DNA of 64,000 nucleotides, from the NCBI GenBank assembly GCA_963674695.2, contig CAXXGI010000001.1, positions 256,001-320,000 on the forward strand. Direction: 5' to 3'. This DNA is from a bacterium. GTDB taxonomy: Bacteria; UBA10199; 2-02-FULL-44-16; JAAZCA01. Positions 1 through 29,232 of the stretch are shown here, in pieces. The first letter of the stretch is position 1, and every line of letters begins with the position of its first letter. The position numbers and the translations under genes were made by a program. The notes under the pieces were generated by a model. It was not told the origin of the DNA and searched no databases. It was given only the letters and a program-made list of their open reading frames with translations.

Positions 1-3000
1 ACCGAACCCAGCGAAGAGCGCCTCTTTGAAGGGGTCATCGCCGCGATCGACTATCTGGCGGAGCTCGCTGCCGAGAAGGGATATGCGATCGATCCCGCGG
101 ATGCCTTCGCCGCACTCTCACCGGTCTTTCGCCGTCTGCGCGCCGAAGCGCTCGAGCGCGAAGCGGATGAACACGGCCGTCATCCGATCACCGTCTACAT
201 CCCGCCCTTCCTGCGAAACCTTGCGCCGGAGCGCATCCGCACCCAAACCTTTGCCGAGCAGCTCAACCAGGCGCTCAGGGCCTTCGACACCGAGCTGGAC
301 CCGCAGATGCAGCAACTCGTGCAGGCCTATCGCAGCGGCAATATCCACCATCCCCAGTATGCCACGCTCGCGCGCCTGAGCACCGCACTGGCGCTCATGG
401 ATGTCAGCCGCACCGAGCGCGACCAGGAACGCATGACCTACGAATTTCTGGCCGGCTTCATGCGCTGGATCGAGGAACTCCGCCTCACCCATCCCGACAT
501 CACCGACATCGCGGGAAAACCGGTGGGCTTGGCGCAGGACACCCCGACGCGGTTTTCGTTTCGCCTCGAGATCAACCCCACGCAGTGGAGCCGGTCGGGG
601 GACACGAGCTCCATGCGCGCGGTGCTCGCCGATGTGCGCCGCAACTACTACGACCGCTTGATCGAGAAGGTCGACGCCTACCTCGACGCGCTCGCCCGGC
701 TGCCGTTTTCGATCGCGCTGGCAACGCCGCCGCAGCACAACCTCGATGCCGGCATCGACGAAGCGCCGCAGACCATCGCGCTCGAAGATCTGCGTCAGGA
801 GTGGACGGAGCTGGCCGAACGCGAGGCGGAAGCACGCACGATGCTCGACGACGACGAAGCGACGAGCATCGAGCAACAGGAAGCCGTCGAATTCTATGCG
901 GATCTGGCCCAGCGCGCCGAGGAGACGCTGCTCTTCACGTGGGCCCACGGCGAGGCGCACGTCGGCGGCGTGCACATCCCGTATCAGGCGGCCGTGCGTC
1001 TCTCGGAAAAACACTCCGGCCTCAGGGAGCGCACGCGCGTCACGCTCTTTGTCGACGACGTCTTTGCCGCGGTGAGCGAAGGACACCTCGATGCGAAGCA
1101 GGTCGACGACATCCTGAAACTCCGGCTGATCCTCGGCCAAGCGGTCCTCGACGGTTCGATCGAGTCGAGCGCGCGACGCGATCCCGCGCGTGTGCGCGAG
1201 GCGATCGAGGAGCGCTGGCAGGGAAACGCCGAAGAACAGACACGGCTCCTGATGGCCGTCGACGAGATGATCGCCCTGGAGGGCGGGCCGGCCAAGGCAC
1301 GCCTGCAGAGTTCGCTCGCGAACGTCATCCGGACCGGCCGCAGGGTGAGTCGCCACAACGATGGACAGACACAGACGGGATTTCCCGTCGGATGGCAGGA
1401 GGATTTCGATCGGTTCATCGGCGACCTGGGCGCGAACGAATCGACGATCGCCGCAGCACGGGCCGCGCTCGTCGACTACGGCGCTGCCTCGAGGGGACTG
1501 ATCGGTCACTTCTGGGAGCAGACGCTCGAACGAGCGATCGAAACGCATGCACATGCAAACACTACCGATGCATCGCTCGTGCGCGATATCATCGTCGGAT
1601 TTCTCCCGGTGATCGGCGCCGCGAACGGACAGGCCGACACCGACTGGACCGGATACGACGACCCGCCCGAGCTGATCGCACAGCGCTCGCTGCAGGTCTA
1701 TCTCGACCTCGTCGACGATGCGACGCTCTCGCCGACCATCCCCATCGACGCGAGGCTTCTGGGCGATGTCATCGATCGTGCGCTGAATGAGCATCGCGAC
1801 ATCGGCACCCTCCCGCGACGCCGGCTCGTCCTGCGCCGCGTGCGCGACCTGATCGACGGACTCAATCGCAGCCGTCGCGGCATCCACAATGCGCCACACC
1901 CCATCACCCTCCCCGAGGGAAGTCTGGTGCCCGATGCGATCGAACGGATCGCGACAGAGATAGAAGCAAGCAACACCTTTATGCCGCGCATCGACCGTGC
2001 ACGCCTACGCCGCGCGTATGCGTACCTGCAGGGCATCCTGCTCACAGAAACATCCATCACCGATCACTCCATCACGGCCGCACTGCGCACGGAATCCAGG
2101 GGGGTCGTACCGCTCCCGACGGAAATGGCCGCACTGCGCCGACTCGCACAGGAGACGCAGAAACGGATCGCACTGCTGGCGGAGGCCATCGACCATCCGA
2201 CGATGGGGGTCGTTCCGGTCATCCGGGCCGGCCATCGCGCGCGCTACATCACCGATCGCGCGCTCACCACCCTCGCCCACGACTGGATGCGGCAGCGCGC
2301 TGTGCTCTTAAACCCCGCGTCGATCGAAGAGCTCGCTCTGAATGTCGTTCCCGAGGCGTTCGAAGCGCATCCGGTGATCGCCGAGAAGATCTCGCACGAG
2401 GCGGCACAGCTTGTCGGCACCTTCTTTCACACCGTCGAAGAGAGCTTGGGCGCACAGATCAACGCCGCGAGAGAAGCGCTGCAGGAAGCCGCTCAGGACG
2501 AGACGGTCATCGCGGGGGATGCCCAGGGTTTTGCCGACAAAGCCCTTCGCGGAAAAAACCTGCCATCGCTGGCGGTGCTGGCCGCTATGGAACGCACGCA
2601 CACGGCCGTGCGCGCACTCACCCAGAACACCATGGATGCGGTTACACCGACGCTGCGCGAACAGGCCGAAACGCTCTTCACCACGCTCGTCGATCCGCGC
2701 CGGATTGAACGCCATCGCACACTCAAAGCCAACGCGAACGCCTTTGACGAGAAGCTCGATGCCATCAGTGCCACGCATGCGCGCATCATGCTGCAGTCGG
2801 CGATCGCCCTCGAGGGCTCGGCCATTCCGACGATGGACACCGCGGCTGTCGCCAAGGCGGAGAAGGACATCCTCGCGGGAGCGAAGATCCTGACCACATG
2901 GCGCACGGAGCTGGAGACGATGGAGGCGTGGCTGACCGAAGCGCAGGATCTAGCGCTCATCCTCGAGGAACAGCACAATCCCTCCATCGTACGCCGCTCT

Positions 3001-27921: not shown

Positions 27922-29232
27922 ATGTCGAAGATAGACCCCAAAGAGCTGCTTCCGCCCTGGTGGCACGACCGCCCCGACCACCTGTCGGCGCACGATGAAA
28001 CGCTGCGCGAAACGTATCTCCGCGAGCGCGGAGGTGAAGACGGCTTTCGCGAGGCGCGCATCGGGTTCAAGGAACACCTGCTCGAGGGGGTGCTCGTCCG
28101 AAACGACCGCGGCATCGCGCGTCTCTTCGTCGATCTGCGCTCGGGATCGGCCGGCACCACGACCGTGCGTTCCGCCTTCCTTCGATTCCTGGGACAGGGA
28201 AGCGACCCCGACGGTCATCGCACGTCCAAGGAAAGACCCAACATCGTCGTCCCTCTCGCACAGACGATCGGACGCTTTGATGCCACCGAAATGGCCACGC
28301 ATGCGCTCTGTCAGGGCGCTCAGTCCGTCTTCAACCGAACACAGCAAATCACCGACGAGGAAACCTATATCGACACCTGGACGGCCTACCGCAACCTGAT
28401 GCTCGCCGCCACCGGGTCGCTGCGACATGAGCTGATCTCACCGCAGAAGCAGCATGCGATCGGTTCGGAAAACCATCTGCGCACCGTTCACGAACGCCTG
28501 GCACAACTCGAAACGATCTTCGAACTGGCCAAACTCTTTCCCCATGACCGGCTGCGAAACGATCCGCTCCATCGAACATGGGCCACCGCCTTCGTCGGCG
28601 GCCAGCGCGCAAAACTCGCCAACAGCATGTGGGCGATACAGATGCTGCGCGAACAGATCGACCGCGGCCGGGCCCAACAAAAGCACCTCACCTTTGCCGC
28701 CCAGGCCATTGTCGCGCTCCATGATCCGCTCGATCATATCCGCATGTCCTATGTGCGCGAAGACAGCATCTGGCCGTTCGTCCTGATCGAGTTGCCCAGC
28801 GAGGACAAACTGCAGGCCTTCAATCCCATCGCCCTGCGAGAGATGGTGGATCGGATCGTCTATGCCGCAGGGACAGCAGGCGCACAGCGAGGGCGGGCGA
28901 CATCGCTCTGGGTCTACTGGGATGTCGATCGGCGCGAGCTCTCCTTCACCGATGAAACCTCGACCCGCGGCGCACTCGACGCCTTTGCGGATGGAGCGCA
29001 GCGGGACTGGCTGGAGGCACTCGCCCCGGTTTTGGGAAATGAGGGCGCACTCGCCCTGGAGCATGACCATGACGGTCACGTCGAAGCGGTGGTGATCACC
29101 GTACCGCAGCAGGAAGCGATCGCCGCGGAGCTACCTCCTGAGGAGTTCAACGAAGGCGCCGTGGACCTCGAGGCCTTTAATCTCCCCGCCGCAACACCAC
29201 CGGCCTATGCCTTCACCACCCTCAGACTGTAA
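27922..29232 (+). CDS. Hypothetical protein with degenerate histidine-kinase-like (H-box and HATPase_c-like) segments and acidic tail
   Basis: SLRHELISP resembles an H-box; ALREMVDRIVYAA...RELSFTDE...GALALEH...VVITVP follows HATPase_c topology without intact N/G boxes; start ATG 27922 is a judgement call. Confidence 0.6.
   Translation: MSKIDPKELLPPWWHDRPDHLSAHDETLRETYLRERGGEDGFREARIGFKEHLLEGVLVRNDRGIARLFVDLRSGSAGTTTVRSAFLRFLGQGSDPDGHRTSKERPNIVVPLAQTIGRFDATEMATHALCQGAQSVFNRTQQITDEETYIDTWTAYRNLMLAATGSLRHELISPQKQHAIGSENHLRTVHERLAQLETIFELAKLFPHDRLRNDPLHRTWATAFVGGQRAKLANSMWAIQMLREQIDRGRAQQKHLTFAAQAIVALHDPLDHIRMSYVREDSIWPFVLIELPSEDKLQAFNPIALREMVDRIVYAAGTAGAQRGRATSLWVYWDVDRRELSFTDETSTRGALDAFADGAQRDWLEALAPVLGNEGALALEHDHDGHVEAVVITVPQQEAIAAELPPEEFNEGAVDLEAFNLPAATPPAYAFTTLRL

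Follow-up and report, generated by a model that had tools for sequence, protein, structure and literature searches.

A C-terminal linker-plus-tail module on unrelated large proteins of a UBA10199 bacterium as a candidate export tag

The stretch of DNA analysed here (the window, 64,000 nucleotides) spans positions 256,001 to 320,000 of contig C1 in the genome of an uncultured bacterium of the candidate phylum UBA10199 (G000; assembly GCA_963674695.2; 3.03 Mb in three contigs, 100% complete), and it opens with the last five genes of a ten-gene array (genes 1 to 5), some of which end in a common C-terminal linker-plus-tail module. This module is real, modular and terminal on unrelated protein cores. 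Its carriers number at least 17 genome-wide by hidden Markov model (HMM), or about 17 to 27 when proteins picked by a composition rule are included. We read the tail, with a probability of roughly 45%, as a disordered C-terminal targeting tag on exported proteins under sigma-28 control, with an injectisome-type type III secretion system (T3SS) as the likely route. All gene calls are our own crude calls of the longest open reading frame (ORF).

Genes 1 to 3 and four other large proteins followed one plan over their last 160 residues, consisting of [KR]-K-G-G-G..., a Pro/Thr-rich run, PLVVE, an acidic Met-rich stretch and a hydrophobic end. The acidic stretch carried the motif [DE]-x-M-x-M-G-A-[DE]-x-F-[ML]-D or the looser form G-[AG]-[DE]-x-[FY]-[VLM]. 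The tail was about 60 to 80 residues long (about 65 in genes 1 to 3, where it was free of Lys and Arg) and furnished with short motifs, and its last 10 to 15 residues were hydrophobic. An HMM built from seven tails matched five more proteins, each at the C-terminal end, with weak E values of 0.002 to 4.6. When each of the 12 tails was left out in turn and scored against 1,974 other C-termini, it ranked first in 7 cases and within the top 4 in 11, the tail of gene 3 being the sole outlier at rank 16; the resemblance that a sequence-only reading of this window had pointed out thus exceeds that among random C-termini. Iteration of the HMM settled at 17 members, with the next best match at E 0.016, and none of the scanned proteins of this 17-member set fell into a recognisable housekeeping family. 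In all matches that were checked the tail formed the very C-terminus, and this constant position on unrelated cores upholds the earlier view of it as a modular tag.

The same reading had described all five genes as ending alike. Its account of a Gly/Ser/Pro/Thr linker followed by an acidic tail free of Lys and Arg in the first three was confirmed, and these three share a homologous module, whereas genes 4 and 5 resemble them in composition only. The tail HMM failed on both (E 120 to 420), and their ends were in the top 3 to 4% of the proteome for net acidity, with 1 to 3% Lys plus Arg. The claim that four of the five tails are Met-rich was overstated, Met accounting for 20, 6, 9, 4 and 0% of the last 70 residues of genes 1 to 5. 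A composition-only rule (last 50 residues: Asp plus Glu 6 or more, Lys plus Arg 2 or fewer; last 12 residues: no Asp or Glu, Lys or Arg once at most, small or hydrophobic residues 11 or more) picked 21 of 1,257 ORFs, of which 11 were HMM members and 10 were additional; gene 5 passed this rule and gene 4 narrowly failed it.

The tails were 15 to 38% identical, with recurring short motifs, and the mean column identity of their alignment was 20 to 26%. At the DNA level the tail genes had no similarity beyond linker matches of 18 to 35 nucleotides, and their G+C content at third codon positions was 0.72 to 0.80, which is coding-like. Thus, the tail is neither a translated repeat or mobile element nor a product of recent gene conversion. 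An AlphaFold2 model of the tail (predicted local distance difference test [pLDDT] score, 61.5; predicted template modelling score, 0.21) suggests that it is intrinsically disordered. For gene 5, the model has a folded core, predicted to be a helical bundle plus an alpha/beta domain, followed by 39 terminal residues with pLDDT values of 21 to 25, which are acidic with a hydrophobic end; Foldseek searches with this model matched histidine kinases and PDK-like proteins only weakly (E about 1e-3; TM score, 0.17 to 0.41).

The carrier cores comprised four giant paralogs, a ResIII helicase, a 2,257-amino-acid (aa) ABC1 kinase-like protein, UDPGP-like, HATPase_c and cNMP-binding/metallo-beta-lactamase proteins and orphans, and the genes were found on all three contigs, dispersed among housekeeping genes. 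Cys was depleted 5.6-fold in the carriers, at 62 of 25,672 residues (0.24%) versus 9,467 of 695,087 (1.36%) in the comparison set of 1,235 other ORFs no shorter than 300 aa (Mann-Whitney p = 5e-8). Cys was missing altogether from the 1,346-aa helicase, the ABC1 protein and a 1,412-aa protein, and 10 of the 16 carriers of at least 500 aa had at most 0.3%, a class that takes in 49 of 576 ORFs of that size (8.5%). Other low-Cys ORFs, judged by their ends and lengths, include outer-membrane-like proteins, a secretin and SctV. By a crude test, no carrier had a signal-peptide-like N-terminus, and two had one borderline hydrophobic window. The highest 19-residue Kyte-Doolittle mean in genes 1 to 5 was at most 2.04, so that the earlier statement that they lack Sec signals and transmembrane helices stands as far as so crude a test can carry it. 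By their Cys depletion and the lack of a signal peptide or transmembrane helix, the carriers look like exported proteins.

Five of the G000 proteins (three giants, the ABC1 protein and a 542-aa protein) and the giants of relatives also had a polar N-terminal module of about 55 aa (M-x-x-I-K...G-G...P-P...V-D-x-Y), which was conserved and disordered; the helicase and the other carriers did not have it. Type III signals lie at the N-terminus, are disordered and non-cleaved, and usually have a chaperone-binding region behind them. Sequence searches of the PDB with the helicase protein and a giant-core profile gave nothing meaningful (best E, 0.04). For residues 430 to 1300 of gene 3, the ESM Atlas gave no usable match, and a word-index homology search gave no match either, the query protein itself also being missed.

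Many of the tail genes were preceded by a shared site, CACGCAAC(T/C)TT-N-GCCGATA, whose GCCGATA part we take to be the classical -10 element of sigma-28 promoters. The pattern GCAAC-N16-CGA[TA]A occurred 188 times in the genome, compared with 24 to 34 times in shuffled sequences. It was upstream of 8 of the 17 HMM members and 110 of 2,439 other ORFs, a comparison with some circularity, as these genes were the source of the motif. Among the composition picks outside the HMM set, the site was present in 6 of 10 versus 70 of 1,230 (p = 7.5e-6), or in 4 of 8 without the two picks that had fed the motif, and low Cys was found in 5 of 10 versus 122 of 1,230 (p = 0.0017). A FliA/WhiG-like sigma gene was located in the T3SS cluster, beside sctN, sctO, sctQ and sctR, and its product scored 132 bits, below the FliA family cut-off of 189.6. 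The sites are putative promoters, and they would constitute a large alternative-sigma regulon in a non-flagellated organism. Examples are found at C1:518298, C1:624195, C1:140836, C2:755402 and C3:804701; many go with very large proteins, and one adjoins sctV.

The export machinery of the genome consists of SecA, a type II secretion system, type IV pili, a Tad-like cluster and the injectisome-type T3SS. SctV scored 793.7 bits (hrcV equivalog cut-off, 692), SctR 233 (yscR cut-off, 208.6) and SctN 625 (cut-off, 604.75), and YscO/SctO-like and SctQ/FliN-like proteins were also present. The three secretins belong to the type II, type IV pilus and Tad loci, and none is in the T3SS locus. Family absences in this complete genome rest on Pfam models. 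There was no flagellin in G000, and no match to VirB4, VirD4 or VirB10 (PF03135, PF02534 and PF03743), for which the controls were positive, or to TssC and phage sheath (PF05943 and PF04984). Encapsulin (PF04454, the family-1 model only) had no match in G000 and none above the cut-off in 12 relatives. The sole ABC_membrane exporter (C1:367643-369877) was fused to a C-terminal GGDEF domain and had unrelated neighbours, with no membrane fusion protein (MFP) or TolC; a HlyB-type ABC/MFP/TolC operon was not found in G000, which has five TolC-like genes. No scanned carrier contained HemolysinCabind/RTX or any other repeat family. The needle protein gave no match in G000, a search whose control was equally silent and which is therefore uninformative.

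Encapsulin, type VI secretion systems and extracellular contractile injection systems (T6SS/eCIS), type IV secretion systems (T4SS) and HlyB-type type I secretion systems (T1SS) were rejected on these Pfam-based results from G000. Because the T4SS, T6SS/eCIS and HlyB-type T1SS were not found, the T3SS is the only machine found that exports signal-less cytoplasmic proteins. The uncharacterised system proposed by the sequence-only reading is therefore probably wrong, the only machine found to lead from the cytoplasm to the outside being of the injectisome type. Its analogies with type I and Dot/Icm signals lost their footing as well, with neither VirB4, VirD4 and VirB10 nor a HlyB-type operon found.

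Two loci of this machinery have neighbourhoods of their own. The sctV gene is separate from the other sct genes (C1:133312-140766), next to secA and among genes for FHA/YscD-like, PEGA and PP2C proteins, and these surroundings suggest a possible control by Ser/Thr phosphorylation. The fourth giant paralog (C2:669784-678492) is about 7 kb from the Tad-like cluster (C2:685246-690080), with small unannotated ORFs between; the cluster encodes RcpC/CpaB, a secretin of the CpaC type and an ATPase of the CpaF type that carries a long N-terminal extension.

In the mechanism that we propose, a linker that is first basic and Gly-rich and then Pro/Thr-rich, the motif-bearing tail and the hydrophobic tip would together form a lineage-specific targeting module. 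This module would mark about 17 to 27 otherwise unrelated, cytoplasmically made proteins as export cargo, the route would be the injectisome-type, secretin-less T3SS, and the cargo genes would make up a late regulon under the FliA-like sigma factor from the T3SS cluster. We infer here export as such, the T3SS as its route and the tail as the recognised element; the tail could instead act past the inner membrane or in a target cell. A two-signal form of the mechanism, in which the proteins would be substrates of a secretin-less, needle-less T3SS of the Myxococcus kind, is unlikely. In that form the N-terminal type III-like module would carry the cargo across the inner membrane, and the fast-evolving tail would hand it to a further device specific to the genome, such as the tip of a Tad-like pilus, by which it would cross the outer membrane and enter prey or host cells. 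The whole cargo set would be a sigma-28 late regulon dating back to the flagellar system from which the T3SS arose.

Several findings weigh against export by the T3SS. The sigma-28-type site stands ahead of about 118 ORFs, and membership of this regulon is not export-specific. The HATPase_c, cNMP-binding, helicase and ABC1 kinase cores are also typical of cytoplasmic signalling proteins, and the carrier statistics overstate independence, because the four giants are paralogs and the ORF calls are crude. To our knowledge, all described type III signals are N-terminal, and a literature search for C-terminal signals in T3SSs brought up, among the papers listed, only work centred on T4SSs. Co-occurrence with a secretion locus, which the sequence-only reading had proposed as a check, does not discriminate, since SctV was found in 40 of the 41 genomes of the candidate phylum that were searched and the giants in 17 of 93. 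The cytoplasmic domain of SctV is near-invariant across 16 genomes while the tails change fast, and SctV is therefore unlikely to read the tail directly. Finally, no tail gene adjoins the T3SS genes, and the nearest link to any apparatus is the giant close to the Tad-like cluster.

In a search of 1.84 billion representative proteins, the nine matches of a profile made from 21 tails (E of at most 0.001) all ended within 6 residues of the C-terminus and were apparently the query genomes' own proteins (four by sequence and five by protein length). The G000 tail profile detected no tail in 40 relatives, its one match being to the Pro-rich linker alone, and a profile of genus-g2 tails detected, in 12 relatives, only the four tails of G001 itself and none in G000. 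The giant core was present in 14 of the 40 relatives and in 17 of the 93 genomes of the whole phylum (a single class) in the collection searched. In G006, G007, G009 and G012 the giant was single and in the same slot, in the order radical-SAM/DUF2344 gene, giant, RimO-like gene, lactonase and YchF, synteny being judged from C-terminal sequence resemblance rather than by family scan. Among 18 homologous or neighbouring tail-type proteins of relatives, 11 had the Gly..Pro linker pattern and 16 had at most 0.45% Cys. All of the orthologues except the giant of G023 ended in a disordered-looking tail with a hydrophobic end.

An acidic tail was confined to G000, G001, G010 and G008, the genomes whose arrays comprise several genes. 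In six related genomes from four other genera, the orthologous giants had 0 to 4 Asp plus Glu in the last 70 residues, and acidity, which the sequence-only reading had made part of the tag, is thus not a general property of it. In G008, three different proteins carried a common tail motif of their own, F-x-G-F-A-D. Tails that are alike within a genome and divergent between genera, on cores that remain recognisable, form the pattern expected of a recognition element that co-evolves with its partner.

The alternative that survives best, although we consider it rather unlikely, is an intracellular docking tag, in which the linker and the acidic and hydrophobic tip would tether many enzymes, acting in signalling or on nucleic acids, to a single hub in the cytoplasm or membrane without any export, as a converse of the SSB tail or in the manner of C-terminal clamp-binding motifs. 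The disordered tail, which is like a short linear motif, would suit such a role, as would the kinase-like, cNMP-binding and helicase cores and one tail end, ..QLSLKF, which we take to resemble clamp-binding peptides; similarity within a genome and divergence between genera would fit co-evolution with any partner. However, the 5.6-fold Cys depletion, which envelope-like ORFs of this genome share, is not expected of cytoplasmic residents, we identified no candidate hub, and docking leaves the tie to a sigma-28-type regulon and to a sigma gene in the T3SS cluster unexplained.

A tail without function, that is, a fast-evolving disordered extension spread by duplication and exon-shuffling-like recombination and simply tolerated, is less plausible again. 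Low complexity, the mean column identity of 20 to 26%, a tail that is unrecognisable between genera and the paralogy of four carriers would all agree with drift of this kind. However, the tail has been kept at the extreme C-terminus of unrelated cores, and its motifs persist at 15 to 38% identity without DNA similarity, which points to selection and not recency. In addition, linker and tail have been kept on orthologues in several genera, and the tail is linked to the promoter type and to Cys depletion.

We think it very unlikely that the tail is a degron or processing signal, its hydrophobic end being read by a tail-specific (S41/PDZ) or Clp-type protease for maturation or for the removal of unexported or surplus toxic proteins. 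The non-polar C-terminal residues presumably resemble Tsp and ssrA-type signals, and an S41 peptidase with a PDZ domain is encoded directly upstream of the G000 array and divergently transcribed. However, no S41-like gene was seen beside the giant in the loci of five relatives (G006, G007, G008, G009 and G012), where ORF ends were compared by eye and not by family scan; a linker and tail of 100 residues with internal motifs exceeds what a degron needs, and the Cys depletion would be left unexplained.

A remnant of a mobile element (integrative and conjugative element or phage), whose polyvalent giants and helicase would be delivered with DNA, is highly improbable: Pfam-less giants do adjoin a helicase, and the array has a GC content of 0.61 to 0.65, slightly above the 0.585 of the genome, but no array protein matched an integrase, T4SS or phage-structure family, the giant holds the same slot across several genera and the other carriers are dispersed among housekeeping genes. 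Least credible of all is a type I or type IVB secretion signal, which a C-terminal, disordered, acidic tail with a hydrophobic end on large, signal-less, Cys-poor carriers would recall, since VirB4, VirD4 and VirB10 were not found, the lone ABC_membrane protein is GGDEF-fused without MFP/TolC, the carriers have no RTX-type family and orthologous tails in four other genera are non-acidic.

The array, which the sequence-only reading had put at 29 kb, consists of ten plus-strand genes over about 50 kb (C1:234723-285232) and begins 21 kb upstream of the window. Upstream of gene 1 are five further plus-strand genes of 610, 542, 1,412, 373 and 3,209 aa, four of which had the tail by HMM; the 610-aa fifth was admitted on weak scores. 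The array is flanked upstream by RNase G, the radical-SAM/DUF2344 gene and the S41/PDZ protease and downstream, from window position 29,242 on, by ordinary chromosomal genes (RimO/MiaB-like, lactonase, YchF, IleRS, LspA, two Lgt and Nth). The protease, of the S41 tail-specific type with a PDZ domain and a lipoprotein-like leader, is encoded on the minus strand at C1:232812-234614, between the radical-SAM gene and the array, and was rejected as the partner of the tail because the adjacency was found in G000 only among the loci compared by eye. We propose that the array arose in place, at a chromosomal locus that is conserved, by expansion of a single ancestral gene for a giant protein.

Within the window, the five consecutive plus-strand ORFs of the sequence-only reading were recovered by our calls (1-9015, 9208-13248, 13498-24366, 24391-27690 and 27718-29232), as were its four kinds of core, namely the paralogous giants of genes 1 and 3 (about 27% identity across about 1,660 aa), the helicase, the hydrolase and the Pfam-less gene 5 (Table 1). 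Genes 1, 3 and 5 matched no family in the Pfam scan, and the 3,763-aa form of gene 1 is recorded as P0013. For genes 4 and 5, our calls probably place the start too far upstream. Codons 2 to 30 of gene 4 as called are a palindromic intergenic repeat that is dispersed in the genome, and ATG 24490 is therefore the likelier start; for gene 5 it is ATG 27922. A minus-strand HAD-domain protein of the window ended in ..FEPLVEVPLDV..MMPISSFQVWAR and failed both the HMM and the composition rule.

Table 1. Features of the window, with window positions and strand.
Feature	Position	Strand	Remark
Gene 1, 3' part (3,004 codons) of a giant of about 3,763 aa	1..9015	+	start at window -2,277 (C1:253724)
Gene 1 linker: KKRGG-, Gly/Ser, then Pro/Thr/Ala-rich	8698..8805	+	
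Gene 1 tail: acidic, 20% Met, free of Lys and Arg, hydrophobic end	8806..9012	+	leave-one-out rank 1; predicted disordered
Gene 2, 1,346 aa, ResIII/DEAD helicase domain at residues 297-487, zero Cys	9208..13248	+	Pfam scan
Gene 2 linker and tail	linker 12997-13068, tail 13069-13245	+	tail HMM; leave-one-out rank 4
Sigma-28-type promoter-like site GCAAC-N16-CGATA ahead of gene 3	13259..13284	+	
Gene 3, 3,622-aa giant with conserved N-terminal module of about 55 aa (M..IK..GG..P..VDxY)	13498..24366	+	
Gene 3 linker and tail	linker 24001-24168, tail 24169-24363	+	weakest tail in leave-one-out, rank 16
Palindromic intergenic repeat between genes 3 and 4	24393..24469		copies elsewhere in genome
Gene 4 from likely start, alpha/beta hydrolase (Hydrolase_4/Abhydrolase_1)	24490..27690	+	end acidic and hydrophobic, without tail-HMM match
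Near-match to sigma-28-type site, spacer one base longer, ahead of ATG 27922	27829..27855	+	
Gene 5 from likely start, 436 aa	27922..29232	+	passes composition rule, fails tail HMM
Possible extra carrier, 1,160-aa HAD-domain protein, 1 Cys	59363..62845	-	tail-like by eye only

The spacers of the array contain repeats of several kinds. A palindromic two-hairpin element of the form GTCATCCCCG..CGGGGATCTCGAT ... ATCGAGATTCCCGC..GCGGGAATGAC lies between array genes at window 9085-9145 and 13365-13425 and also near window 12970, 30643, 49933 and 59248-59284; its 13-nucleotide core was found in 9 copies in the window versus 0.8 expected. The 77-nucleotide hairpin with perfect arms at window 24393-24469 had matches, in translation, at 7 or more further places of the genome with 51 to 90% identity, and it is therefore a second dispersed intergenic repeat. 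The spacer that separates gene 1 from gene 2 is filled with tandem heptamers, some GAAGGGT-like and some CACGAGT-like (window 9016-9050 and 9165-9195). Farther downstream, two paralogs of Lgt, the prolipoprotein diacylglyceryl transferase, are encoded on the minus strand (window 48463-49260 and 53483-54319) and flank the IleRS-LspA genes. Elsewhere in the genome, other giant proteins end differently, in Gly-Gly-(Gly)-Cys-[SA]-L followed by a hydrophobic helix and a cluster of Arg and Lys, which is like a sortase-type CTERM (C1:494338-504150, C3:522031-530148, C1:624280-629775, C2:391890-396479 and others), and a single ORF of 12,808 codons occupies C2:526741-565167.

Taken together, three independent marks, namely a terminal tag, Cys depletion and a sigma-28-type promoter, single out about 20 to 27 candidate cargo proteins in one complete genome, in a candidate phylum that as a whole has such a T3SS (40 of 41 genomes searched). 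If the proteins are cargo, they would be the first substrate set, with a recognisable tag, for this class of machine, and sigma-28 control of exported substrates would have outlived the loss of the flagellum. The tag would then also provide a rule for finding effectors in uncultured predators and symbionts, one that current N-terminal type III predictors would not use. Should export prove not to occur, the tag would still be a docking module that has not been described before, one by which kinases, a helicase and proteins of 3,000 aa are organised.

Among known sorting systems, the module differs from type IX secretion and PEP-CTERM sorting in that its carriers lack a Sec-like N-terminus or transmembrane segment and its disordered tail is not a folded beta-sandwich C-terminal domain. 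It is like encapsulin loading peptides and the Pro/Thr linker plus dockerin of cellulosomal proteins in joining a flexible Gly/Pro/Thr linker and a C-terminal recognition element to unrelated cargo; unlike these, it comes with no shell gene that we could find, its tail is not a folded dockerin-like domain and its carriers are without the Sec signals of cellulosomal proteins. With HlyA/RTX type I signals it shares an uncleaved, disordered C-terminal position on large, acidic, Cys-poor proteins, but neither RTX repeats nor a HlyB-type ABC/MFP operon was found here, and the cores are alpha-helical or enzymatic, including a helicase. In composition the G000 tails are similar to the Dot/Icm signal, a Glu-rich E-block with hydrophobic residues within roughly the last 30 positions, which is likewise C-terminal, disordered and acidic, with few Lys and Arg and a hydrophobic end, on many unrelated large proteins; the module here is about 100 aa long with a linker and motifs of its own, it is non-acidic in several genera and T4SS components were not found.

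The late regulon of the flagellar sigma-28 factor (FliA) encodes late substrates of the flagellar T3SS. The genome described here differs in that it has no flagellin, a sigma factor below the FliA cut-off and a regulon of about 118 ORFs with putative promoters, and it is similar in that a FliA/WhiG-like sigma gene lies beside sct genes and that GCAAC..TTT and GCCGATA precede the candidate cargo genes. In Myxococcus xanthus, a needleless T3SS is reported to work with a Tad-like pilus, Kil, and its effectors and delivery route are described as unidentified (PMC12075869). No homology of the present proteins to those of the M. xanthus system was established, and the tail profile matched nothing outside this lineage; the link of the tail proteins to the T3SS or the Tad system is one that we infer. 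The M. xanthus system (PMC12075869) is alike in having an injectisome-type export apparatus and a sorting platform without a dedicated secretin, in a genome which, like that of the bacterium studied here, also provides a Tad-like cluster.

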